Below, one piece after another: positions 1,113 to 17,960 of a DNA stretch of 20,000 nucleotides (its first letter is position 1; the number at the start of each line of letters is the position of its first letter). The DNA is from Thermoplasmatota archaeon (GTDB taxonomy: Archaea; Thermoplasmatota; E2; UBA202; DSCA01), in the NCBI GenBank assembly GCA_034660695.1, contig JAYEJS010000128.1:1-20000 (forward strand), read 5' to 3'. Under the pieces are notes generated by a model. It made no database searches, had not been told where the DNA came from, and saw only the letters and a list, made by a program, of their open reading frames with translations. The translations under genes and the position numbers were made by a program.

Positions 1113-2630
<1,518 letters not shown>

Positions 2631-2674
2631 CGTTTATTTTCGACCAAACGCCAAATTTGTGCCAGTGCAAAGAT

Positions 2675-2767
2675 GGGCCGGTAGATCAGTGGAAGATCGC
2701 CTGCTTTGCAAGCAGGAGGCCATGGGTTCAAATGCTGGGCATCCGGCAGAATATCCCATCCGGTCCA
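2675..2767 (+). tRNA. tRNA-Ala (anticodon TGC), with an intron-like T-loop insertion
   Basis: Acceptor GGGCCGG/CCGGTCC, anticodon arm CCTGC-TTTGCAA-GCAGG, T-stem ATGGG/CCCAT interrupted by 21 nt. Lies in the 16S-23S spacer, a common euryarchaeal arrangement. Confidence 0.93.
2733..2753 (+). other. Putative intron in tRNA-Ala, nominal position 59/60
   Basis: ATGGGTTCAAA^TGCTGGGCATCCGGCAGAATA^TCCCAT; inner helix GCTGG/CCGGC, TTC/GAA central pairs, 3-nt bulges AAT and TAT. Removal gives a 7-nt T-loop TTCAAAT. Confidence 0.8.
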
Positions 2768-2845
2768 TTCCACGCCAGTTGGTCTGTACAGTATCAATTG
2801 GTATGGACTGAGAAATGGCATGAGCTGCCGTTTCCGTGAAGTCAT

Positions 2846-2859
2846 GCATATGCAACCTG
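2846..2859 (+). other. 5' strand of 23S precursor processing stem
   Basis: GCATATGCAACCTG pairs with CAGGTTGCGTATGC (5787-5800); inner GAGCTGCA (2871-2878)/TGCAGCTC (5771-5778). Confidence 0.75.
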
Positions 2860-2872
2860 GACGTAAAAAAGA

Positions 2873-5776
<2,904 letters not shown>

Positions 5777-5805
5777 TCTCGTTAAACAGGTTGCGTATGC
5801 TTTAT

Positions 5806-6030
5806 GGGCTTGATGGTCATAGCAGCAGGGAAACACCCGGTCTCATCCCGAACCCGGAAGTTAAGCCTGCTACGTGCTATTGAGTACTATGGTGCGCGAG
5901 CCCATGGGAGAGATACCCTGAAAAGGGCCCGGGTCTATGGCTTAGGCGGAGAGCCCTGTTGTCCTTCGGGACTTCGGTGTAAACTCTGCTGTTTGAAGGC
6001 TATAGATCCTCGGTTTGCTATCAAGCCCTT
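5806..6030 (+). rRNA. 5S ribosomal RNA with a ~93-nt internal insertion
   Basis: Core TCATAGCAGCAGGGAAACACCCGGTCTCATCCCGAACCCGGAAGTTAAGCC...GAGTACTATGGTGCGCGAGCCCATGGGA. Helix I 5' strand GGGCTTGATGGT pairs over 12 bp only with GCTATCAAGCCC at 6017-6028. Confidence 0.8.
5911..6003 (+). other. Structured insertion within 5S rRNA
   Basis: Lies between ...CCCATGGGAG and AGATCCTCGG...; contains CCCU-GAAA-AGGG and GUCC-UUCG-GGAC hairpins; AGAT occurs at both edges so the boundary can slide. Confidence 0.65.
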
Positions 6031-6048: not shown

Positions 6049-6132
6049 TTTTACACTTATATTTCTATGTCAACAATTTTGTTCATCAAAAACAGTATAA
6101 AGACGGATTGCATTATATTATTGGCGGAAAAA

Positions 6133-6777
6133 ATGAAAGGAAAAACAGCAATAGCATTGCTGATGGCTGGACTGTTCATCCTGCCAATTACAATGGGGCT
6201 ATTAGTAAACGCGATGCATTGGCCAGGTGAACCAAACGAATTGCAACCGCCATACCACTATCCAAAAAATATAGGGGATATCATCGCCGCTGAATGCCAC
6301 TGGCAAAAGAAAATAGGTCAAAACCGATGGGACCATGCTCTTATATACGTTGGAGAACTTGGAGATGATGATTGTGTAGAAGCCGATCCCCACATGGAAT
6401 ATGGATTCCCACAATATCTGTGGAAAGGCAAAGTTGAATACACGAGTATAAATAAGACACGCGACGATTATAGATGGGGGCATGCCCAAGCAGAAGTGGA
6501 CACAAGTCAGTCTATCAGGGATCATGCTGTAGAATTTGCAAAGGATAGAGCAGATCAGGAGAGGAAATTTGATTTCAGCTCCTCTGGTAATAGCAAACAA
6601 ATAGACGGTCCAACTTGGCTTCCAGCAGGCAAGTACTATTGCACCGAGATAGTATGGGCAGGCTATGCAGATGGAGGGAAAGACCTAGATCCAGGTTTGT
6701 ACAATCCCGTTTGGGTGGAGGAACTCATCTACCACAGCGATGTTGATATATACTGGCAGTGGGGTGGTCCTGACTAG
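6133..6777 (+). CDS. Secreted permuted papain-fold / YiiX-like (NlpC/P60 superfamily) candidate
   Basis: Signal-like MKGKTAIALLMAGLFILPITMG; motifs WDHALIYVG...CVEADP and YYCTEIVWAGY...LDPG. Start taken at 6133, not 6067, because upstream codons are in the duplicated leader. Confidence 0.6.
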   Translation: MKGKTAIALLMAGLFILPITMGLLVNAMHWPGEPNELQPPYHYPKNIGDIIAAECHWQKKIGQNRWDHALIYVGELGDDDCVEADPHMEYGFPQYLWKGKVEYTSINKTRDDYRWGHAQAEVDTSQSIRDHAVEFAKDRADQERKFDFSSSGNSKQIDGPTWLPAGKYYCTEIVWAGYADGGKDLDPGLYNPVWVEELIYHSDVDIYWQWGGPD

Positions 6778-6844
6778 TCATGCAGCAAGCTTTCAAGGTA
6801 GCTCTGCCCTCTTTCTTTTATTTTTTCTAAACAGCAAAAACTAA

Positions 6845-8401
6845 ATGACAAAAAGGGGTAGAATGAAAAGAGAAATGATAAAGAAAGTTGTTATCATCCC
6901 AATAATTCTTATTCCTATACTAGTAATGGTTTCTTCATCGATGAATTTACAGGAGGGAAAAGAAAATGTTAACGAAGAATGGAACAAAACATTTGGAGGA
7001 AACTATAACGATAAAGCAGAATGGGTTGTACAAACAAATGATGGGGGGTATATTATTGCCGGATACACTGGTTCTTATGGAGCTGGAGACCTTGATTCGT
7101 GGATCATAAAGACTGATCCAAATGGAAATGAAATATGGAATAAATCATTTGGAGGAAAAAAAGAAGATGTTGCATACTGCGTTAGAGAGGTGAATGACGG
7201 AGGATATGTAGTTACAGGATACTCCCGTTCTTTTGGAAATGGAAGGGAAGATGTCTGGCTAATAAAAACAGATGAAAATGGAAATGAGGAATGGAATAAA
7301 ACATTTGGAGGAAAAGAAGGAGAATATGCATTATCTGTGATACAAGCAAAAGATGGTGGATATGTTATTGTAGGGAATACTGAATCTTATGGAGCTGGAG
7401 ATAAAGATATATGGCTAATAAAAACAGATGAAAATGGAAATGAGGAATGGAATAAAACATTTGGAGGAAGAGCTACAGAATTTGGAAATTACGTTATACA
7501 AACAAGAGATGGAAGATACGTTGTTGGAGGAGAAACTGAATCTTATGGTCATGGGAAATTAGATATATGGCTAATAAAAACAGATGAAAATGGAAATGAG
7601 GAATGGAATAAAACATTTGGAGGAAGTAGTATGGACAGAGGAGAGGACGTTATCCAAACAAAAGATGGTGGCTATGCGATTACTGGAGAATCAAGACCTC
7701 ATATAACGGTATGGGATGATGTCTTTCTCATAAAAACCAGTGAAAATGGAAATATGGAATGGATTAAGTCATTTGAAGGAATACATCAGGATCTCGGATA
7801 TTCCATCATCCAGACAAACGATGGATACCTAATTGGAGGAACGACACATTCTTATGGTGCTTCAGCTTTAGCAAATTTCAAGGCTTGGTTGATAAAAACA
7901 GATAAAGGTGGAAACGAGCAATGGAACAAAACATTTGGTAAAAGAGGAAGGGAATCAGCAGATTGTATCATACAAGCTAGCGATGGTAGCTACATATTTG
8001 TTGGAGGTACTGATAGTTATGGTGCTGGAAAGGAAGATGCATGGTTAGTAAAATGCCAGGATTATCCTCCTCCAAAAATAAAAATTGTGAAGCCAAGAAA
8101 AGGATGGCTTTACATATTTGATAGAAAAATAATTCCAATTGGAAAAACGATAATTTTAGGAGGAATTACAGTAAAAGTTGAGGGTTACGATTCTGAAGAA
8201 AAGATAAATAGAGTTGAATTTTATCTAGATACTCCAGAGGCTTATGAAAGAGAACCTAGAGCAATTATTTACGAACCTCCATATGAATGGAAATGGGATG
8301 AGCCAGCAATTGGCCCTTGCTTAATAACATCTGCAGCTTATTATGGTAATACCGAAGCTCATGCGGCCGATATAATAAATTTATGGATATTCAACATCTA
8401 A
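6845..8401 (+). CDS. Secreted ~52-aa tandem-repeat (probable beta-propeller) protein with C-terminal Ig-like domain
   Basis: About seven repeats of E-W-N-K-T/S-F-G-G...SYGAGDxDxWLIKTDENGNE; C-terminal PRKGWLYIFDRKIIPIGKTIILGGITVKVEGYDSEEKINRVEFYLD. Confidence 0.8.
   Translation: MTKRGRMKREMIKKVVIIPIILIPILVMVSSSMNLQEGKENVNEEWNKTFGGNYNDKAEWVVQTNDGGYIIAGYTGSYGAGDLDSWIIKTDPNGNEIWNKSFGGKKEDVAYCVREVNDGGYVVTGYSRSFGNGREDVWLIKTDENGNEEWNKTFGGKEGEYALSVIQAKDGGYVIVGNTESYGAGDKDIWLIKTDENGNEEWNKTFGGRATEFGNYVIQTRDGRYVVGGETESYGHGKLDIWLIKTDENGNEEWNKTFGGSSMDRGEDVIQTKDGGYAITGESRPHITVWDDVFLIKTSENGNMEWIKSFEGIHQDLGYSIIQTNDGYLIGGTTHSYGASALANFKAWLIKTDKGGNEQWNKTFGKRGRESADCIIQASDGSYIFVGGTDSYGAGKEDAWLVKCQDYPPPKIKIVKPRKGWLYIFDRKIIPIGKTIILGGITVKVEGYDSEEKINRVEFYLDTPEAYEREPRAIIYEPPYEWKWDEPAIGPCLITSAAYYGNTEAHAADIINLWIFNI
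7257..7627 (+). repeat. 156-bp tandem coding repeats
   Basis: ggctaataaaaacagatgaaaatggaaatgaggaatggaataaaacatttggagga occurs identically starting at 7257, 7413 and 7569. Confidence 0.85.
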
Positions 8402-8433
8402 TATACCTCTTATTTCTTGGTTTTATATAGGTA

Positions 8434-8666
8434 GAGCCCATGGGAGAGATACCCTGAAAAGGGCCCGGGTCTATGGCTTAGGCGGAGAGCCCTGTTGTCC
8501 TTCGGGACTTCGGTGTAAACTCTGCTGTTTGAAGGCTATAGATCCTTGGTTTGCTATCAAGCCCTTCTTTTCATTTTTTGATTATTTTACACTTATATTT
8601 CTATGTCAACAATTTTGTTCATCAAAAACAGTATAAAGACGGATTGCATTATATTATTGGCGGAAA
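8434..8666 (+). repeat. 233-bp direct repeat, copy 2: truncated 5S tail + terminator + leader
   Basis: 232/233 identical to 5898..6130; lacks the first ~92 nt of 5S. Confidence 0.97.
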
Positions 8667-8667
8667 G

Positions 8668-9351
8668 ATGAAAAGAAAATATAAAACAATAGGTGTGTTG
8701 GTGGTGGTAGGGGTATTTGTTATACCGATGATGCCAGTAAAAGCTTGGACTCCTCCGGATGATGCAAGAGACATCGTTGTTACAGAATGCAAAGGAATTA
8801 GAGATCTGCCAGGTGAATTAGATCATACTGCAATATACGCTGGCAGTAACGAGATATTAGAAGCAGATCCACGTTTCGAGAAATGGAAACCATGGGAAAG
8901 ATGGCTTTATCCAACAAATCATAGGCGATTACATCAAAAATCATATTCTGGCAATGAAAACTATGGAAGAGCCGAAAGAGACGAGTTAGATGAATTATTT
9001 AATCCAAAATATTACAGCATACAAATATACCTAAGGGTACCGGATGCATACTCTGTTTTACCAGATATCGTTGATTTTGCACAAGATAAGGCGGATCGCA
9101 AATGGGTAGTAGGAGGAATACCAAATAAATCGAGGCCATTTGATTATATATCTTTTTGGAGTGAATACACAAAACAGGTAGACAACCCCAATGACCCGAA
9201 TTCTCTTGGATTTGGATATTATTGCTCAGAGCTAACATGGGCTGCATATAAATCAAAGGACTTCAACTTAGATCCCAATGGCAATGAAGTCAGACCGCAA
9301 GACATTTATGATAGCGATATAACTGAGGAATATAGAAGATACACAACATAA
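8668..9351 (+). CDS. Second secreted YiiX-like / permuted papain-fold candidate
   Basis: Signal-like MKRKYKTIGVLVVVGVFVIPMMPVKA; LDHTAIYAGSNEILEADP and YYCSELTWAAYKSKDFNLDP match motifs of the 6133..6777 product. Confidence 0.6.
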   Translation: MKRKYKTIGVLVVVGVFVIPMMPVKAWTPPDDARDIVVTECKGIRDLPGELDHTAIYAGSNEILEADPRFEKWKPWERWLYPTNHRRLHQKSYSGNENYGRAERDELDELFNPKYYSIQIYLRVPDAYSVLPDIVDFAQDKADRKWVVGGIPNKSRPFDYISFWSEYTKQVDNPNDPNSLGFGYYCSELTWAAYKSKDFNLDPNGNEVRPQDIYDSDITEEYRRYTT

Positions 9352-9389
9352 ATTAAAATCCTCTTTCTTATTTATTTTTATTTTTAAAA

Positions 9390-10912
9390 ATGAAAAAGAA
9401 AATGAAAAAAATAATAATTTCTCTTTGTATCGGAGTATTTGTAGTACTCATTCCGTCAATATCATTCAATTTAACTAAAGATTTAACTAAAGAGGAAGAC
9501 GAAGAATGGAATAAAATATATGGGGAAAGCTTTGCTGAAGCATATGACATTGAACAAACAAGTGATGGACATTTCATTATTGCAGGGCACACTAAAAATT
9601 GGACTGCATGGCTTCTAAAAATAGATAAACAAGGAAATGAAATATGGAATAAAACATATGGAGAAGGAATATTTTATAGCATTGTTGAGACAGAAAGTGG
9701 ATATACCATAGGCGGATATACTGAATCACGTGGAGCAGGAAAAGGAGACTTTTGGCTTGTTAAAGTGGATAAACAAGGAAATGAAATATGGAATAAAACA
9801 TATGGGGAGGGAAATATGGAATCGGTAAGAAAGGTTATATCAACAAAAGATAGATACCTTATGGTTGGAATAAAAAGGTATCCGCCTAGAGAGGATGGAT
9901 ACAGCGATTCTAATATTTGGCTTGTTAAAGTGGATAAACAAGGAAATGAAATATGGAATAAAACATATGGAGGGAATTGGACAGAAGATGGACAAGACAT
10001 TATAGAAATAGAAGATGGGTATTTAGTCTCAGGAAGAACATATTCATATGAAAAATATGGGGGGTGGGACACTTGGCTAATTAAAATAGATAAACAAGGA
10101 AATGAAATATGGAATAAAACATATGGATGGTGGGATTTCGAAACGGAAGCTTACATAATTGAAATAGAAGATGGTTACATGATTACGGGATCCACTCTTT
10201 CTACTTATGTAGGATTTTGCGTTGGGTATCTAATAAAAGTAAATAAGGCTGGGGAAGAAATATGGAGTAAAAAATATGGATATAAAGCAGAGAAATTTCG
10301 AGATATTTAAAAAATAGAAAATGGATATATTTTAGTAGGGCTTACTGAGGGATATGGTGTAGGAGATTTTGATGCTTGGCTTTTAAAAATAGATGAGGAA
10401 GGAAATGAAATATGGAATAAATCATTTGGAGGAAGAGGAAGAGATCGTGCTTATTCAATAGAAATAAAAAACGATAATTATTTTATTGTTGGAGAAAAAA
10501 TAGAAATGCATGGATTATAAAATGTGCTGATTATCTCCCACCTAAAATAAAAATAGTTAGACCAAAGGAAAATTATCTGTATATTTTTGATAGAGAAATA
10601 ATGCCATTTAACAAAACAATGGCACTCGGGAGCATCACTATAATTGCTGAAGTTTATAATCCTATAAATGGTACAATAAAAAGAGTAGAATTTTATCTTA
10701 CTTTTTCAGGGAGAAAATATGAATACGAGCCAAGAACAGTTTTATATTCTCCTCCATATGAATGGAAATTTGATGTGCAAACGATCTCGTTGTTCAGGCC
10801 AGTGGAAATTACCACTGCTGCCTACTATGAAAATGCAGGAGGAGTAGCAGTAGATAAAAAAGAGGTTTATATTATAAAGTTGGCGGCTTCTGTCTCTACC
10901 TTGCATTCATAA
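9390..10912 (+). pseudogene. Degraded secreted repeat protein, paralogue of 6845..8401
   Basis: 9390..10310 ends in in-frame TAA, after which the same frame continues KIENGYILVGLTEGYGVGDFDAWLLKIDEEGNEIWNKSFGG; a shift near 10520 is needed to reach KCADYLPPKIKIVRPKENYLYIFDREIMPFNKTMALGSITIIAEVYNP. Confidence 0.8.
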
Positions 10913-10948
10913 GGTTTGCTATCAAGCCCTTCTTTTCATTTTTTGATT
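10913..10948 (+). repeat. 5S-tail/terminator remnant, copy 3 (36 bp)
   Basis: GGTTTGCTATCAAGCCCTTCTTTTCATTTTTTGATT identical to 6012..6047. Confidence 0.93.
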
Positions 10949-11004
10949 TATTAGCTCGAAAATGATATAGAAAGCAATAAAAACCGTCGGGCATTTATTC
11001 TAAT

Positions 11005-11193
11005 ATGAGTATTGAAGTTGAAATAAAGGACATGAAACAGCGTTTAGCTGAAATTTCAGATAAGCTGGATGAACTACTGCAGGAAAAGGAAACCATTTCA
11101 ATTATGAAACTGTCAGAAAAATCTTTATCTAAATTCTTTAATAACGAACCAGACATTTACAAAATAGAAGATTTAAAGGTAAGATACAAATGA
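11005..11193 (+). CDS. Putative antitoxin partner
   Basis: 62-aa ORF MSIEVEIKDMKQRLAEISDKLDELLQEKE..., overlaps the downstream toxin-like ORF by 4 nt. Confidence 0.55.
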   Translation: MSIEVEIKDMKQRLAEISDKLDELLQEKETISIMKLSEKSLSKFFNNEPDIYKIEDLKVRYK

Positions 11194-11519
11194 AAGGAAA
11201 ATTTGTTTTGATTCCATTTCCATTCACTGATTTAGCTATCGCAAAATTAAGACCGGCACTGGTAATCCACGAAGAAAAGAAAGATGTCATTGTTGCATTT
11301 ATATCCTCAAGAATTCCATCGGAGATATCCATTACAGATGTGGTTATAACCGCTGAACATCATGCCTTCAAAAGAACTGGTTTAAAGGTTGATTCTGTTA
11401 TAAAACTTGACAAAGTTGCAACCGTGTTAAAAGATTTAATTGTTGGTGAGCTAGGAGAGGTGGATGAAACTTTGCGAAAAGAAATAAATGAGAAATTGAG
11501 AAAGATATTCACAATTTGA
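11190..11519 (+). CDS. PemK/MazF-family toxin-like protein
   Basis: MKGKFVLIPFPFTDLAIAKLRPALVIHEEKKDVIVAFISSRI...DSVIKLDKVATVLKDLIVGELGEV matches the PFPFTD...K.RPALV and D.iK.dki.tv features of the family. Confidence 0.85.
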   Translation: MKGKFVLIPFPFTDLAIAKLRPALVIHEEKKDVIVAFISSRIPSEISITDVVITAEHHAFKRTGLKVDSVIKLDKVATVLKDLIVGELGEVDETLRKEINEKLRKIFTI

Positions 11520-11546
11520 AGTCATTTTTTCAACTCAAAAGTAATA

Positions 11547-11572
11547 TGCTATCAAGCCCTTCTTTTCATTTT
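11547..11572 (+). repeat. 5S-tail/terminator remnant, copy 4 (26 bp)
   Basis: TGCTATCAAGCCCTTCTTTTCATTTT identical to the segment beginning at 6016. Confidence 0.9.
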
Positions 11573-11674
11573 ATGTTTTTCGTATTTTTATTGTCCTATT
11601 TTTGTTGTTCTCCCAGAACAATTTTGTCGGTAGAAATCAATATACCCCCCCGCATTACATTATTGGTGAGAAAA

Positions 11675-11830
11675 ATGAAAACGGAGCAGGGCGGAAATTT
11701 AGAAAAGGAACCTAACCCTGCGGGTCAAAAAGGAGGGAAAATGCCGAAAATAAGAAGAGCATGCCCGAAAGGTGGAATTCCGACTGAGGCGCTATATAAA
11801 TATCGGAAAAACAAAAAGGGGGAAAGATAA
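11675..11830 (+). CDS. 51-aa basic companion protein of the putative RiPP cluster
   Basis: MKTEQGGNLEKEPNPAGQKGGKMPKIRRACPKGGIPTEALYKYRKNKKGER; GGTGAG upstream of ATG; stop codon 1 nt before the precursor ATG. Confidence 0.55.
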   Translation: MKTEQGGNLEKEPNPAGQKGGKMPKIRRACPKGGIPTEALYKYRKNKKGER

Positions 11831-11831
11831 A

Positions 11832-11993
11832 ATGCCAATGGAAGAACCCATATATGAAGACACCGCGACCCCTGGCTGCGGCGAAGGTTTACTCTTCTTC
11901 TGTGGACTCGACGAACAATATTTCTGTTCCGGCCTTTTATTCAATTTTTGGTGTAGTGTGCCACAACGCCCATTCGTTCTAGCAGTAGAGTAG
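11832..11993 (+). CDS. Putative RiPP precursor peptide (53 aa, four Cys)
   Basis: MPMEEPIYEDTATPGCGEGLLFFCGLDEQYFCSGLLFNFWCSVPQRPFVLAVE; purine-rich GGGGGGAAAG RBS; directly upstream of a PqqD-like/rSAM/SPASM gene. Confidence 0.7.
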   Translation: MPMEEPIYEDTATPGCGEGLLFFCGLDEQYFCSGLLFNFWCSVPQRPFVLAVE

Positions 11994-12018
11994 TTGCTCC
12001 CTAGCTAGAAGGAACTAC
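11990..12018 (+). promoter_or_regulatory. Stem-loop between precursor and maturase genes
   Basis: GTAGTT...CC...GG-AACTAC hairpin beginning at the precursor stop codon. Confidence 0.35.
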
Positions 12019-12079
12019 TATAACCTCCGGAAATCAGACAACGATTTAGTTAGACTATTAACTAGGAGATGTATTCCAG

Positions 12080-13450
12080 ATGTATCCAACGTTAGAAAAA
12101 AACATTGAGTTAAGGTTTCAACCAACAGAAGCAGAGGTAATAAATAGAGGGAAGTTAAACTTCACGGCGGTTAACGATGTTGGGGCGGAAATCCTTGCGA
12201 GTTGCGATGGGAAAACTCCTATTGATGAAATATGTAGGAGAATGGCCCAGAGACACGATGACACCGTTAGAAGGGTGAAACCGATTATTTTAAGGTTCCT
12301 AGAAAAGGCAGAGAAAAGAGGACATGTCTCCTTTCATGACATATCTCAAGATCATTGTGGCACTATCTCAGGCAGCCGAAAGTATTTTACGCCAATACAG
12401 GCGTCTGTAGAGCTTACTATGGCATGCAATCTTAAATGCAGACATTGCTACGCGAATTCGGGGACATCAAAATCCAACGAGCTCTCTACGGAAGAATTTT
12501 TAGATATCTTTAGCAAGCTTTACAAAGTAGGCGTTGTTAGAGTGACTCTTACGGGCGGAGAACCTTTGCTTCACAATGATCTTCCCGAAATCCTAGAATT
12601 TTGCTTCAAAAAATTTCATTTGCAATTACTGACAAACGGTATTGGCGTTACCGAAAAAATAGCAAGACAATTATCTAGGTATATAGTCACTACACAACTC
12701 AGTTTGGACGGAGATAACTCGAAAACACATGACTACATGAGGGGAAAGAAGGGGGTCTTCGAAAAAACCATTAAAGCGATTAAAATACTAGTCAGACATA
12801 GAGTACCCACAGTTGTTGCCATGTCGGTAACACCATTCAATATAGACCAAATTGAGGGATGTCTTCATCTTGCGCTAGATCTAGGGGTTGCAGGATTCAG
12901 GGTAGGGGGTTTAACCCCAACTGGAAGAGCAAAGGATCTTGGATGGGAATTAAATGAAGAAGAATATAACGGGGTAAGGAAAACCAGGAGGAAACTTGCG
13001 AATAAATACAAAGACCAAATTTGGGTAGAATCGGAGGAAAGCTTAATTACCGGGGAAGAACGGACTGAAAAATCAAATGATAGGAGGAAAATAACTGTTG
13101 AGACAAAAGATAAGCCAAGGAAAATTAAACCGAGAAATTGTGGCGCAGGTTATAGAATGTTAGTGATATCTCCTACTGGAGAGGTTAGACCATGCCCTAT
13201 TATAAGCGACGAAAGATTGGTTATTGGAAATATAAAGAACGAGGGCATCAAAAATATCTTAAATCATAGAATAGCAAAAACCTTGCCGGAAGTCATTGCT
13301 CCAATCAAAGAAATCTGTGGCGAATGCAAGTATTTTTATAGATGCGAAGGCTGCATAGGTACTGGCTTAGTACAATGTACGGAAATAGAAGATTGCAACT
13401 GGGCAAAAAAAGAATTAAGAAAATTACCAAAAGTTCAAGGGAAGTTTTAA
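12080..13450 (+). CDS. Radical SAM/SPASM peptide maturase with N-terminal PqqD-like domain
   Basis: PqqD-like LNFTAVNDVGAEILASCDGKTPIDEICRRMAQRHD; CNLKCRHCY motif; C-terminal Cys set CGAGYRMLVISPTGEVRPCP...CGECKYFYRCEGCIGTG...C...C. Confidence 0.88.
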   Translation: MYPTLEKNIELRFQPTEAEVINRGKLNFTAVNDVGAEILASCDGKTPIDEICRRMAQRHDDTVRRVKPIILRFLEKAEKRGHVSFHDISQDHCGTISGSRKYFTPIQASVELTMACNLKCRHCYANSGTSKSNELSTEEFLDIFSKLYKVGVVRVTLTGGEPLLHNDLPEILEFCFKKFHLQLLTNGIGVTEKIARQLSRYIVTTQLSLDGDNSKTHDYMRGKKGVFEKTIKAIKILVRHRVPTVVAMSVTPFNIDQIEGCLHLALDLGVAGFRVGGLTPTGRAKDLGWELNEEEYNGVRKTRRKLANKYKDQIWVESEESLITGEERTEKSNDRRKITVETKDKPRKIKPRNCGAGYRMLVISPTGEVRPCPIISDERLVIGNIKNEGIKNILNHRIAKTLPEVIAPIKEICGECKYFYRCEGCIGTGLVQCTEIEDCNWAKKELRKLPKVQGKF

Positions 13451-13484
13451 AAAGTTGTATGCGTTGGAAAGAAACATGGATAAG

Positions 13485-14880
13485 ATGAAGAAGTTAATGA
13501 AGATGATAGCCATTCCGATGGTGATACTATTATTATCTGCAAGCAGCATGACAAATATAGCTTGCAACGTAAAAATTAATCATCAGCTTCAACAATCAAT
13601 CGATGAAGTCGTACTTCAAACCAATTTCAAGCCTCATGTTGTTGTAGCTATGATAGATTCTGGCATAAATGTTTACCACGAGATATTCAGAAGAGAAGAT
13701 ATGGTGCAGCACCCTTCTACATATATTGGAGGATTTCCGGAAGATGCAGAGGCAATCAATTTAACTTTTGGTGATGATTGGGAAAGCAACTATGAGAATG
13801 ATAAGGAAATATGGGAAAACCTTGAAGAAAAAAAATTATACTGGTTTCCGCATACAAATATCATTGGCATATCCTTTGGGCAGTCAACTTGGTATGGAAG
13901 AGAAGAGCCTGGAGATCCTATTTTAGATGATGTTGGCCATGGAACAAGTACATCTTCTATTATAGAAAAAATAAATCCTAATGTAACAATTTTGATGGTT
14001 GAAACGGGAGGAAATAAACTGAAAGAGGCTTTGTCGTGGACAGTAAATCGGTCATGGATTGATATTATTGTTCCCGAGTTTGGTGTCTGGTATCGTCCAC
14101 GCATGCTTTTCTGGACAACAATTTGGTGGTCTGGCTTTCAAGAAATTTCCAAAAGAGGAGTGAAAAATGGAAAAATAATTGTTACAGCCGCTGGCAACAG
14201 ACCATGGATAATCCCAGAGCTTTCTTACATATCCGGACCACCATGGGTTATTTCCGTTGGAGGAGCAGAAGGATATTGTCATGGAATAGACTTATCGACA
14301 GCCAAAAGTGCTGACTACGTTTCAACATTTACGAGAAAAATTGCATTTCATTTTAATACATCAACATACTGGGTGGGGTCAGGAACAAGTTTATCTATTC
14401 CGACGGTAGCAGGTACGCTATCTTCAATCATTTTAAAGATAAGAGAGGAATTGAATGAATTATACCTATGGAATAAGGAATGGGGCATTGATTGATGTCC
14501 CAGAAGAAGGAATTCATATTACAAACTGGGATATAAGGAATACACTAAACCATACTGCCACCTATTGGAACACAAGTGATTGGAGTTTTTATGACTGGAT
14601 ATTTAAATGGCCATGTAGAAATGCAATTGATCCTTATACTGGTGAACCTGTTTCTTTATGGCTCAAAATTTTATTGAGGATAGTGACTGCAAATATCCCT
14701 GTAAACCCAGTTGCTCCTTGGCTACAAATGAGTTGGGGATTTGTGAATGAAAGCATAGTAAATGATACAATAGATGTTTTACTCGGCAAAAAAGAAATGC
14801 CGGAGAAACCAGAAGGGGCAATAAGATATATGGAAGCCATCTATAAAATTCGAGAAATGATTTGGAGAAGTTATTCATGA
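13485..14880 (+). CDS. Subtilisin-like (S8) serine protease with signal peptide, apparently frameshifted near 14455-14495
   Basis: Asp AMIDSGIN, His DVGHGTSTSS, Ser GSGTSLSIPTVAGT. ORF 13455..14495 overlaps 14455..14880, whose GIHITNWDIRNTLNHTA resembles the helix following the catalytic Ser. Confidence 0.75.
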
Positions 14881-14947
14881 TGGACAACATCGTACTATGC
14901 GGAATGAGCAATGATCAAAGAAATTTGTCGAGGTGAATTAAGAAACG

Positions 14948-15934
14948 ATGTCAGCGATCATAACCACTGATTTAATAAAGAAATACAAAACCTCCTTTTC
15001 CCTTAAAAAACTCTTAGGAAAAAGAGATTTTATCCAGGAGACAGTAGCATTGAATGGCCTTTCATTTTCGGTTGGTGAAGGAGAAATCTACGGGATTTTA
15101 GGTCCAAATGGAGCTGGTAAAACCACTTTAATCAAAGTCTTAGCAACGATATTGTTGCCAGATGGTGGGGATGTTGAAATCCTTGGCTATAAGTTGCCTA
15201 GAGATGAAAAGAAAGTGAAAGATTTAATTGGTTTAAGCCTTGGGGAATATGAAAGAACATTCCAATGGAGGATAACTGGGAAACAAAATTTAGAATTCTT
15301 TGCAGCATTATTTGGCACACCGAAAAACTCTGTAAAAGATAAGATAGATGAGGTTTTATCTCTAGTTGGCTTAGAAGATAAAGCAGACACGTTGTTTTTG
15401 GAATATTCCACCGGCATGAAACACAAGCTAGCTATTGCTAGAGCATTACTTAATGATCCAGAGGTATTGCTCTTCGATGAACCAACAGCTGGTCTAGATG
15501 CTAAAACATCAAGAGAGGTTGGTAATTTTATAAGAACATTAACAAAAAATGGTACAACCATTATCTATACGACCCATCGCCTAGAAGAAGCTGGGAATCT
15601 CTGTGATAGAATTTTAATTTTAAATCAGGGGAAAAAGGTTGCGGAAGAGAGCCCAACCAATTTGAAAAAACTTGCTAGTGAAACAGAGGTTTTGCAAATA
15701 GAATTGAATGAGGTTAACGATTTATTGTTAGAGCAAATCCAAAATCTAGATGGAATTAAGGATGTTTACCTGACCGGCCCAAGGATAATAAGAATTCATT
15801 GTAACCAAATAAACGGGTCGATATATTCAATTTTGGATTTGATAAAATCAAAAGACGTAAAGATAAACCAAATATATTCTTTCACGCCATCCGTACAGGA
15901 TGCATTCCTAAAATTGACTGGTGAAGAAAAATGA
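14948..15934 (+). CDS. ABC transporter ATP-binding protein (exporter type)
   Basis: Walker A GPNGAGKTT, signature region STGMKHKLAIARAL, Walker B EVLLFDEPTAGLD. Confidence 0.95.
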   Translation: MSAIITTDLIKKYKTSFSLKKLLGKRDFIQETVALNGLSFSVGEGEIYGILGPNGAGKTTLIKVLATILLPDGGDVEILGYKLPRDEKKVKDLIGLSLGEYERTFQWRITGKQNLEFFAALFGTPKNSVKDKIDEVLSLVGLEDKADTLFLEYSTGMKHKLAIARALLNDPEVLLFDEPTAGLDAKTSREVGNFIRTLTKNGTTIIYTTHRLEEAGNLCDRILILNQGKKVAEESPTNLKKLASETEVLQIELNEVNDLLLEQIQNLDGIKDVYLTGPRIIRIHCNQINGSIYSILDLIKSKDVKINQIYSFTPSVQDAFLKLTGEEK

Positions 15935-16941
15935 AAAAGTTAATATTAATTTCTTTAGGTATCGAAATACCAATCTTTATCATGGTCTTGCTGTCAATAG
16001 CCTTGAACTACAATCCACAAGATTTCATATCGATCGCTCCTTATATTTTGCCGTTTATACTAATTTTCTCGTCTTTAACATTGATATGGTTTTTAATGGG
16101 AAAAAGTGGCTCTTTTCGGGTAACATATGCATTTATTAAAAGAAGGTTTCAAGTTTTCACATCTTACAAGTTTCAAATAATATTTACTATTTTTAATATC
16201 TTTTTAATGGTCATCATTTTTTATATTGTTGGCAAGCCTTTCGTAGAGATAATGTTTGCTTCTATGTCTGGTGGATTGCTAAATTATGGTGGATACGATT
16301 TTCTTACCTTCATCATCGTGGGCATGATAGCATGGCCCATGCTTTTGTCTGGCTACAGTATTGCCTCGCGTAAGATAAGACAGGAGCAATATACCGGTAT
16401 GTTCGAAATAATGATTCCAACAAAATATGGGGTGAAAGTTTTGCCATTTGCCTCCTTATTGACAGGAACATTAAGCTCTATCACAATGACGATATCTAGT
16501 TTGTTAGTCATAATTTTTCTCTTGCATGTCGACCTAAAATTAGGTAATCCCCTTGCTTTATTGGGATTAATCAGCATTATAATCCTCTCTCTTCTGACTA
16601 TGTGGGAACTGGGCTTAATATTTGGTGGATTGACGGCGATTTATAAACAACTTGGACCAGTTAGCTCAATCCTCCAAACAATAATGATGTTTTTTTGTGG
16701 GATTTACATCCCAGTACAAATATTGCCAGCTTATATTAAGCCATTATCTTATGCCCTTCCTTTGACATACGCCTTTAGAGCTATCAGGGCAAGTATGATA
16801 AGTGGGCAGGGTATAATGGATTACTTGTGGGATGTGATCGTCCTATTTATTTTCTGCGTTATAATGGTTATAGGCGGATACATAGTGTTTACTAAACTTC
16901 TGGACAAAGCCAGGAAATATGGAACAGTTTATGGCTATTGA
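15931..16941 (+). CDS. ABC-2 type transporter permease
   Basis: Multiple hydrophobic spans, 4-nt overlap with the ATPase gene, YALPLTYAFRAIRASMISG near the C terminus as in ABC-2 permeases. Confidence 0.88.
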   Translation: MKKLILISLGIEIPIFIMVLLSIALNYNPQDFISIAPYILPFILIFSSLTLIWFLMGKSGSFRVTYAFIKRRFQVFTSYKFQIIFTIFNIFLMVIIFYIVGKPFVEIMFASMSGGLLNYGGYDFLTFIIVGMIAWPMLLSGYSIASRKIRQEQYTGMFEIMIPTKYGVKVLPFASLLTGTLSSITMTISSLLVIIFLLHVDLKLGNPLALLGLISIIILSLLTMWELGLIFGGLTAIYKQLGPVSSILQTIMMFFCGIYIPVQILPAYIKPLSYALPLTYAFRAIRASMISGQGIMDYLWDVIVLFIFCVIMVIGGYIVFTKLLDKARKYGTVYGY

Positions 16942-17347
16942 AGTGCTTCTCTTACGTGTATAATTTTTTCATTTTGCCAAGGTGATGTAGGATAGAGGGT
17001 AGAAAGTCGGTAGAAGAACCTTCATTCCCTGAGAGAGAAGGTAGCCATTTTCTTGATTTCTACCACCCATGCTACACCGCCTAACCTCTGGGTAACAAGG
17101 TTTATAAATCAGTGAAATATCGATATATGTTGAAAAATACGGATAAACTTTACGAAGGATCGGAAACAGGTTTGCTGCCCGCGATTTAATCCCGAACCAT
17201 GAGATGAAAAAGAGATTACCTGGTGGGATAAATTGTCCCTCAAAGACTAGGTAAGATGTTTCCTTCACATTCCAGTTGGTTTCGGCAAAACTATAAGAAA
17301 AAGAGGTACAGTCGGCTCAAACGACCCGTGAACCCGAGAGCACAGGG

Positions 17348-17960
17348 GAGCCAACAACAACCTGTCATATACACCCAGAAGAGCCAACTGGTAATAATGC
17401 CTGGTATGTGAGTGATATTACAATAACATTAACTGCAACTGATGAGGTAAGCGGTGTAGACCGGTGTAGACTATACACTGTATAGACTTGATAATGGAGC
17501 ATGGCAGGCATATACAGGGCCATTTGTTGTTGATGGCGATGGAATACATAGCATTCAATACTATTCAGTTGACAATGTAGGGAATAAAGAGGATATAAAA
17601 GAAGAGCGGGTGCGAATGAATATTTGTGGATCAGAGATAACTGTCTCAAAGCCAATGAGCTATCTTTTCATCTTCGATAGAGCAATCATGCCATTGCCTG
17701 GAGACAAGCCATTGATTATTGGAAGAGCAACAATAATAGCAACCTTTGCGGATGTCGCTACTTCAGGAGTTGACAGTGCTGAGTTATATATTGATGATGA
17801 ACTCAAAACAAGCTTTGTGAGCGGAGTTGAGTATACATTGAATGAAAGGTTGCTCGGCGACCATACCATTAAAATTGTTGCTTATGACAAAGCAGGCAAT
17901 AAGGCAGTGAAAGAAATACGAGCGACGATATACAATTTGAATATATTCAAAGACTTCTAA
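17348..17960 (+). pseudogene. Remnant of secreted protein with OmpL47-like/Ig-like domains
   Basis: EPTTTCHIHPEEPTGNNAWYVSDITITLTATDEVSGVD, frameshift, then YRLDNGAWQAYTGPFVVDGDGIHSIQYYSVDNVGNKEDIK...SYLFIFDRAIMPLPGDKPLIIGRATIIATF. No start codon in the 5' part. Confidence 0.75.

Follow-up and report, generated by a model that had tools for sequence, protein, structure and literature searches.

Does a run of genes in a Thermoplasmatota archaeon that encodes a small Cys-rich peptide, a radical S-adenosylmethionine (rSAM) protein, a protease, and an ABC transporter specify a peptide that is made on the ribosome and modified after translation (RiPP), and, if so, of which chemistry? The run lies in a stretch of 20,000 nucleotides (positions 1–20,000 of contig JAYEJS010000128.1, assembly GCA_034660695.1; hereafter, the window), of which a first-pass annotation, made from the letters alone, had described positions 11675–16941 as a complete RiPP cluster. 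From the Cys-rich peptide onwards, the ORFs (open reading frames) and their profile matches bear out the gene order proposed there, all on the + strand: peptide, maturase with RiPP recognition element (RRE), rSAM and SPASM domains, S8 subtilase, ABC ATPase, and ABC-2 permease. The proposed division of labour among precursor, RRE-bearing maturase, protease, and exporter is likewise supported by the domains, the synteny, and the shared precursor motifs. We therefore consider it likely, on the strength of sequence comparison, that the five genes form a RiPP operon that would make, cross-link, and export a small Cys-rich peptide, and that its product is probably sacti- or ranthipeptide-like.

The maturase gene (12080–13450, + strand) encodes a protein of 456 residues with three domains. 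An N-terminal PqqD domain (PF05402, residues 27–82, 34 bits against a cut-off of 23.4) represents the RRE, and it is accompanied by a radical SAM domain (PF04055, 96 bits) and a SPASM domain (PF13186, 33 bits against a cut-off of 21.5), such that the PqqD and SPASM domains predicted for this interval in the first pass both exceed their Pfam cut-offs. Specifically, residues C116, C120, and C123 form the CX3CX2C motif (C116-x3-C120-x2-C123) and are all invariant, the GGE motif is present within TGGEPLL at residues 158–164, and the seven Cys of the SPASM motif (C354-x12-G367-x4-C372, C413-x2-C416-x5-C422-x2-C425, and C439) vary little or not at all among 30 homologues. The structural model predicted by AlphaFold2 has a mean pLDDT of 87.6 and a pTM of 0.86, and its residues 1–86, the RRE region, fold into four β-strands and three helices with pLDDT values of 86–98. 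A Foldseek search with the model returns SkfB, CteB, and SuiB as the top three folds (TMq 0.55–0.65), the alignments to CteB and SuiB being full-length, and the best matches of a PDB sequence search are SkfB (6efn, E = 7e-32) and CteB (5wgg, E = 2e-17).

The family assignment is less direct. The best NCBIfam match is AlbA (NF012164), with 167 bits against a cut-off of 850, and the homologue in a sister locus (L173, in assembly GCA_054001055.1) scores 180 bits with the same model. SkfB (TIGR04403, 137 bits against 300), PapB (NF047865, 94 against 340), and StsB (118 against 625) also remain under their cut-offs, WgkB (136 bits) and ScmE (137 bits) score near SkfB, and the SCIFF maturase model is not among the 25 NCBIfam matches listed. 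By its sequence, the maturase is thus a new RRE-rSAM-SPASM subfamily, outside every named family. Between the rSAM barrel and the SPASM domain, the protein further contains a Lys/Arg/Glu-rich insert of ~30 residues (residues 323–352; 13046–13135), which is modelled as disordered (pLDDT below 50) and is unique to the window maturase, being largely missing in homologues and about half as long in its closest relative, that of L173.

The precursor gene (11832–11993, + strand) ends 86 nt 5′ of the maturase gene on the same strand and encodes a peptide of 53 residues with four Cys, MPMEEPIYEDTATPG-CGEGLLFF-CGLDEQYF-CSGLLFNFW-CSVPQRPFVLAVE; the true start may be M3 (11838), which would give 51 residues. 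Four units make up the core, CGEGLLFF, CGLDEQYF, CSGLLFNFW, and CSVPQRPF, and they follow the pattern C-[GS]-x5-F with periods of 8, 8, and 9 residues. Four occurrences of this pattern, which was picked after inspection, were reached in 0 of 10^6 residue shuffles. Each unit is encoded with different codons, as read from the sequence, and the retention of the repeat despite these differences argues for selection at the protein level. The core is rich in aromatic residues (7 Phe, 2 Tyr, and 1 Trp), places a Phe at +7 of each Cys, and does not contain the CxxxD repeat that was looked for as a ranthipeptide-type feature.

Small ORFs adjoin homologous maturases not only in the window but also in L173 and in a further locus (L004), and all three peptides begin with ME[ED]P, which establishes an adjacent, co-conserved small gene beside the maturase. 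Two further patches are common to the three peptides, a central [SG]G[AL]L[FD] (GGALF-like) and a C-terminal C-x0-2-[PT]-x-[RH]-P, and the last Cys is invariant among them, while the aromatic positions are not. Judged by these motifs, the peptide is a member of a small, previously unannotated precursor family. The first-pass description of the precursor as unassigned is borne out, since the peptide has no public annotation in any source checked, GenBank carrying a 51-residue ORF instead, and no database relatives. Specifically, the peptide matches no Pfam or NCBIfam model (sets that would include precursor families such as SCIFF), a search against 1.84 billion representative proteins gives only three weak matches, to long repetitive proteins, and none of 282 pattern matches in JGI metagenome contigs was confirmed as a relative. 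At the sensitivity of these database searches, the peptide is an orphan.

Comparison of related loci places the peptide and the maturase in a recurrent context. The sister locus L173, which was reached through a search with the permease, has the order peptide, S8 subtilase (intact, 463 residues), maturase, ABC ATPase, and ABC-2 permease; its maturase is 43% identical to that of the window, and the gene order thus differs between the two. L004 has a 79-residue ORF, a maturase (39% identical), and an S8 gene, after which the contig ends, and HGW-Thermoplasmata-1 (L001–3) has a maturase (36% identical), S8, ABC, and ABC-2 genes. Three or four independent loci accordingly combine maturase, S8, ABC, and ABC-2 genes. 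Small ORFs with Cys also precede maturase homologues that are more distant, namely two tandem CxxC-rich ORFs in L006, a 37-residue ORF with two Cys in L007, and a 49-residue ORF with two Cys in L112, such that 5 of the 8 homologue loci examined (L173, L004, L006, L007, and L112) have such an ORF directly upstream. The first-pass annotation had named, as the pattern that would speak against a RiPP assignment, maturase homologues consistently without a peptide neighbour or clustered with heme-pathway or enzyme-maturation proteins; instead, this fraction has the small ORF, no heme gene is found in any neighbourhood examined, and the RiPP assignment is thus not refuted.

The census of homologues is an under-count. 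The 90%-identity cluster that contains the L173 maturase has an unrelated 55-residue protein as its representative, and the cluster of the L173 peptide holds an unrelated 657-residue protein; such clustering noise is probably why the first homologue search missed L173, and it leaves the census incomplete. A scan of GTDB genomes and a second scan of metagenomes, both with maturase alignments, gave listed matches that are mostly unrelated SPASM enzymes (24–33% identity). The patterns used there were generic rSAM motifs, and those loci served only as a negative control for the co-occurrence of S8, ABC2, and peptide genes.

The two genes at the 3′ end of the cluster encode an exporter. The ATPase (14948–15934, + strand) matches PF00005 with 100 bits and is DrrA-like, its score with the DrrA model TIGR01188 (258 bits) lying below the cut-off of 312 and thus outside the DrrA subfamily proper. 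The permease (15931–16941, + strand) matches PF01061 with 49 bits, and its gene shares its first 4 nt with the end of the ATPase gene. An ABC_tran ATPase and an ABC2_membrane permease in tandem constitute an ABC-2 exporter of the DrrAB type. The permease is 78% identical to that of L173 and 59% identical to that of L001, and the ATPase is 88% identical to that of L173. Members of the same ABC/ABC-2 family are also found in other company: at 55–71% identity they adjoin four tandem CefB-like rSAM/SPASM maturases in L176 (511–10008), and they adjoin two caspase-like (Peptidase_C14) proteins in L175 (667–4978).

These components suggest a pathway. A promoter conserved with the sister locus would drive expression of the precursor of 51–53 residues, and the short acidic N-terminus of the precursor, MEEPIYED, would serve as the leader, which the N-terminal PqqD-type RRE of the maturase would bind. 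The maturase would then use its SAM cluster and two auxiliary Fe–S clusters to abstract hydrogen atoms from the core, and the four Cys would be joined to carbons of other residues through thioethers of the sacti- or ranthipeptide type, the candidate acceptors being the four Phe of the C-[GS]-x5-F repeat, at +7 from each Cys. The DrrAB-like transporter would export the modified peptide, protect the producer, or both, and, much like LanP, the extracytoplasmic S8 subtilase would trim the leader extracellularly.

We favour thioether chemistry because Cys is common to the putative precursors and because AlbA, SkfB, and CteB are the nearest enzymes. The alternative that survives best keeps the RiPP cluster and changes the bond: the rSAM enzyme would install a non-thioether link on aromatic residues, which could be C–C or C–O (cyclophane, streptide, darobactin, or WgkB type), and the Cys would form disulfides or have another role. 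The near-equality of the WgkB and ScmE scores with that of SkfB favours such a link, as do the presence of SuiB, a Lys–Trp C–C cross-linker, in the top three folds and an unusually aromatic-rich core in which every Cys has a Phe at constant spacing. However, it is the Cys that recur in the putative precursors of L006, L007, L112, L173, and L004, the best profile and structure matches (AlbA, SkfB, and CteB) all form thioethers, and the residue kept throughout the three-member family is the last Cys rather than any aromatic position. We regard a non-thioether link as unlikely, and sacti- or ranthipeptide-like thioethers as the probable outcome.

The S8 gene (13455–14880, start at 13455 or 13476, + strand) is the one damaged component. 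Its product passes the gathering score of PF00082 (28.3 bits against 21.8), begins with a hydrophobic signal or anchor, and retains the S8 triad, the DSG, HGT, and SGTS motifs being conserved in the alignment. The gene consists of two overlapping ORFs, 13455–14495 (346 residues) and 14455–14880 (141 residues), which together are colinear from end to end with intact homologues of 451–482 residues. Specifically, comparison with a 68%-identical gene in L091 locates a 4-nt tandem duplication of GAAT at ~14452–14459 (GAATGAAT, + strand), which produces a +1 frameshift: the window reads TTGAATGAATTATACC (TTGAAT-GAAT-TATACC), and L091 reads TTGAATTATATCC (TTGAAT-TATATCC). The separately assembled Logan contig L008 (run SRR26901928) is identical over 9 kb including the duplication site, and this recurrence in a second assembly makes the duplication more likely to be real than an error of one assembly. 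The cluster is consequently not 'complete', as it had been called. We also considered programmed frameshifting and rejected it, since the site is a plain 4-nt duplication with no slippery motif, and treated the change as a mutation. All three catalytic residues (Asp, His, and Ser) lie in the first ORF, before the break, and the 141-residue piece starts with its own ATG at the junction. The truncated protease may retain some function. In view of the duplication, processing would rely on the truncated enzyme, rely on paralogues elsewhere, or be lost.

The frameshift could also be the first step of pseudogenization, in which case the cluster in this genome would be a decaying remnant with no mature product. 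The same duplication in both assemblies, the rearranged or reduced state of related loci, including the replacement of the region upstream of the L001 maturase by an ABC-ATPase fragment, and the S8 pairs without a maturase in L090 and L091 are in keeping with decay. Yet the other four ORFs (precursor, maturase, ATPase, and permease) are unbroken and keep every catalytic Cys and Walker motif, the S8 triad and the ATG of the second piece survive the break as described, and S8 paralogues are common in the lineage and could substitute. Decay to a non-producing remnant therefore appears rather unlikely to us.

The S8 paralogues themselves fall into two types, A (the window, L090b, and L091a) and B (L173, L090a, and L091b), with 49–56% identity between types and 69–86% within them. 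Tandem pairs of A and B with no maturase are found in L090 (2–2736) and L091 (3610–6313), and each RiPP cluster has a single type, namely A in the window (13455–14880) and B in L173 (5249–6640).

Upstream of the precursor gene, two short DNA elements are conserved with L173. The first is a promoter-like motif, AGGCGCTATATAA(A/G)TAT, which is present in the window as the TATA-like AGGCGCTATATAAATAT (11787–11803, + strand), ~30 nt 5′ of the precursor start codon; the L173 counterpart, AGGCGCTATATAAGTAT, has an identical core and is equally far from the start codon of MEEP. The second is a 40-nt element (11604–11643, + strand), a candidate operator or distal promoter, which contains the palindrome TTGTTCT-N3-AGAACAA, is identical at 31 of 40 positions to L173 4823–4862, and scores 35 in local alignment against a maximum of 28 in 200 shuffles. 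Among 176 loci, the palindrome occurs only in the window, its identical copies, and L173. An Rfam scan of 11500–12100 found nothing meaningful.

The promoter-like motif lies inside a basic ORF of 51 residues (11675–11830, + strand; GenBank hypothetical protein U9O96_06695), which the first-pass annotation had counted as the first gene of the cluster. The ORF has no Pfam or NCBIfam match and no tblastn match in any related locus, including L173, L004, and L001. Furthermore, the DNA around the motif aligns with L173 only through frame-breaking indels, such that the motif is the only conserved stretch within the ORF and the reading frame is not kept. These comparisons suggest that the ORF is probably spurious, overlying the precursor promoter, and it is not included in the cluster as we define it; public annotation thus placed a probably spurious ORF across the promoter and overlooked the precursor. 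The opposite view, that the ORF is a real cluster gene, encoding for instance a regulator of small size, a peptide for immunity, or another precursor, can draw on its annotation by the NCBI pipeline, a GGTGA Shine–Dalgarno-like motif 6 nt upstream together with a GGAGG before an internal Met, and an in-frame codon score (0.10) above its off-frame scores, a score that does not discriminate; set against the missing counterparts and family matches and a conserved part limited to the promoter, this view seems improbable. The idea that the ORF arose as a degenerate copy of the 5′ end of the precursor was rejected, its local self-alignment score of 30 being below the shuffle maximum of 36.

Several findings weigh against a RiPP operon as a whole. 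Gene callers did not call the peptide, and its codon score (0.20, against 0.13 for the overlapping alternative ORF) comes from a measure that does not discriminate. The stem-loop between the precursor and maturase genes (−15.7 kcal/mol, z = −0.95) is no better than those of shuffled sequences, and an attenuator hairpin at this position was rejected for that reason. In HGW-Thermoplasmata-1, the maturase, S8, and transporter genes are present with no recognisable ME[ED]P precursor upstream. The S8 gene is frameshifted in this genome, and the closest S8 relatives (62–71% identity) lie in S8–S8 tandem arrays with no rSAM gene, which implies that the protease family is not dedicated to RiPPs. Finally, the maturase falls below the cut-offs of all curated families, and the type of cross-link is consequently not predictable from its sequence.

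The most far-reaching alternative, that the rSAM protein matures a cofactor or a protein (AhbD/NirJ-like, PqqE- or MftC-like, or acting on the adjacent protease) beside a fortuitous small ORF, has in its favour the appearance of AhbD (145 bits against a cut-off of 500), MftC (135 against 265), NirJ2 (134 against 500), and PqqE (105 against 381) among the NCBIfam matches and a homologue in L093 that sits among housekeeping genes with no obvious peptide, but is very improbable, given that all these scores lie far below cut-offs of 265–500 bits, that the protein has an N-terminal RRE, which is confidently modelled, that no heme, PQQ, or mycofactocin genes occur in the 10 neighbourhoods examined, that the window peptide does not end in the C-terminal Val-Tyr of the mycofactocin precursor MftA, that the small ORF keeps its leader and tail motifs across three loci, and that an exporter is always adjacent.

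Within the RiPP reading, the parts of the cluster differ strongly in their conservation. Between the window and L173, the transporter DNA is 79% identical over 2 kb and the transporter proteins are 78–88% identical, compared with 53% for S8, 43% for the maturase, and ~34%, confined to shared patches, for the peptide. This pattern fits a conserved export scaffold with an exchangeable or fast-evolving peptide-modification cargo, and either cassette replacement or rapid divergence could have produced it. In L001 (5914–7605; also in L002 and L003), the maturase ORF is fused in frame to an N-terminal ABC-ATPase fragment of 60 residues, which is 47% identical to residues 2–61 of the window ATPase; the precursor gene of HGW-Thermoplasmata-1 seems to have been lost or moved in a rearrangement. 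Extending these observations, one may picture an AlbA-like enzyme that forms four consecutive, non-nested Cys-to-Phe thioether rings, in a fast-diversifying peptide-maturase specificity cassette set on a conserved transporter under a palindromic operator. We hold this extended proposal to be unlikely. If true, the four-ring topology would be unlike the classical sactipeptide hairpin, and the product would rank as the first archaeal peptide made by an rSAM enzyme; a diverged peptide-maturase pair on a conserved transporter would moreover be the pattern expected of archaeal antagonism or kin recognition under arms-race selection.

The wider setting of the cluster does not point to foreign origin. 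The rSAM protein is 100% identical to a GenBank entry from a 'Candidatus Thermoplasmatota archaeon' MAG. The window contains a complete archaeal 16S-tRNA-23S-5S operon at 1113–5926, and the end of the 5S gene (5926) is separated from the cluster by ~5.7 kb and at least six ORFs, so the cluster does not lie at a 5S-tail module boundary, as had been stated. The GC content of the cluster is 0.377 against 0.36–0.42 in the flanks, and this compositional test for horizontal transfer detects no deviation. The suggested horizontal acquisition thus loses both its positional argument and any sign from GC content.

Several neighbouring features were recorded. Secreted-protein ORFs with weak Ig-like (Big_7) and mucin-binding-like (Mucin_bdg) matches lie on both sides of the cluster (6067–10912 and 17610–17960), those between the 5S gene and the cluster being Ig-like or adhesin-like, and L173 also has an Ig-like ORF 5′ of its cluster (4325–4696), 37% identical to the protein encoded at window 6845–8401. 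Between the 5S gene and the cluster, a MazF/PemK toxin gene with a 62-residue upstream partner (11005–11519) is bracketed by 33-nt direct repeats (10917–10949 and 11547–11579; 31 of 33 positions identical, 630 nt apart). This module is not present in L173, and both Logan contigs of this organism begin at window 10919, that is, in the first repeat copy. From its sequence context, the module resembles an inserted cassette, perhaps one that is polymorphic within the population. On the other side, ~670 nt 3′ of the permease gene (16942–17609) are without a convincing ORF and have a slightly raised GC content (0.416), and in L173 a tRNA synthetase gene directly follows the permease gene; the downstream junction therefore differs between the two genomes.

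The first-pass annotation had presented rSAM RiPP clusters as sparsely described in archaea, and the literature contradicts this. In an antiSMASH census of archaea, rSAM ranthipeptide and sactipeptide biosynthetic gene clusters (BGCs) are among the abundant RiPP classes, and 17.6% of all archaeal BGCs come from Thermoplasmatota (PMC12144867). Work on Thermococcus describes a subtilosin-like sboA/albA/albC set (bioRxiv 10.64898/2026.07.27.741052), and ranthipeptides have only recently been reported in archaea (PMC13635244). The census paper states that only two haloarchaeal lanthipeptides had been validated before it, and it characterises 24 more lanthipeptides; in the literature consulted, haloarchaeal lanthipeptides are accordingly the only archaeal RiPPs with an experimentally characterised product, though genome mining predicts rSAM clusters among the abundant classes (PMC12144867). 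Our literature search returned no paper on the present precursor family or on rSAM RiPP precursors in Thermoplasmatota, nor any description of ME[ED]P-leader peptides, of the S8 partner, or of the conserved promoter and operator.

The cluster is thus ordinary in kind, and on sequence grounds what is new is a maturase and a precursor that lie outside the curated families. The locus is a compact, testable case, with a defined substrate of 51–53 residues, a very short leader, and a single maturase, and the sister locus L173, with its intact protease and differently patterned core, can be set beside it. That the transporter is conserved and the peptide-maturase pair strongly diverged furnishes a concrete hypothesis on the evolution of such systems in uncultured Thermoplasmatota. 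The cluster is in these respects well suited as a starting point for experiments on archaeal rSAM peptides.

Among known systems, the archaeal ranthi- and sactipeptide BGCs of the antiSMASH surveys are of the same general kind, occur in Euryarchaeota-related lineages including Thermoplasmatota, and are bioinformatic only; they differ in that the surveys give class counts and not the ME[ED]P precursor family (PMC12144867; PMC13635244). The LanP proteases of class I lanthipeptides (NisP and EpiP) resemble the window in combining an S8 protease that has an N-terminal signal or anchor with an ABC transporter in a RiPP operon. By analogy, export would come first and extracellular leader removal second, with the window S8 protein as the candidate leader protease. 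However, LanP belongs to another RiPP class, whereas the S8 match in the window is weak (28 bits), its gene is frameshifted, and its family also occurs outside RiPP clusters.

SkfB, of the sporulation killing factor, and CteB, of SCIFF/ranthipeptides, are the closest solved structures by both sequence and fold (TMq 0.65 and 0.55, respectively). Both share with the window enzyme an RRE, a radical SAM barrel, and a C-terminal Fe–S domain, and both form thioethers from Cys. Their identity to the window enzyme is 21–24%, however, and the latter has in addition the 30-residue disordered insert. SkfB carries a twitch domain, whereas the window enzyme has the full seven-Cys SPASM motif.

The subtilosin A system of Bacillus subtilis (sboA-albABCDEFG), taken together with its sboA/albA/albC relatives in Thermococcus, differs from the window in several respects. 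The window maturase scores far under the AlbA cut-off (167 against 850 bits), and the window precursor is unrelated to SboA, its Cys being spread at intervals of 8–9 residues, whereas those of SboA are clustered N-terminally opposite an acceptor segment. The window also has an S8 protease in place of the AlbE/AlbF M16 protease pair, and, with no such pair, head-to-tail cyclisation is not expected. The two systems also have points in common. In both, a small Cys-containing precursor gene lies directly 5′ of an RRE-rSAM-SPASM enzyme gene and an ABC transporter is part of the operon, and AlbA is the best-scoring curated model for the window maturase, the match taking in the N-terminal RRE region. 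Both leaders are very short, that of SboA comprising 8 residues. Furthermore, the peptides of L006, whose maturase is a 32%-identical homologue, resemble SboA in that their CxxC motifs cluster N-terminally and their tail is GLFGL-like.

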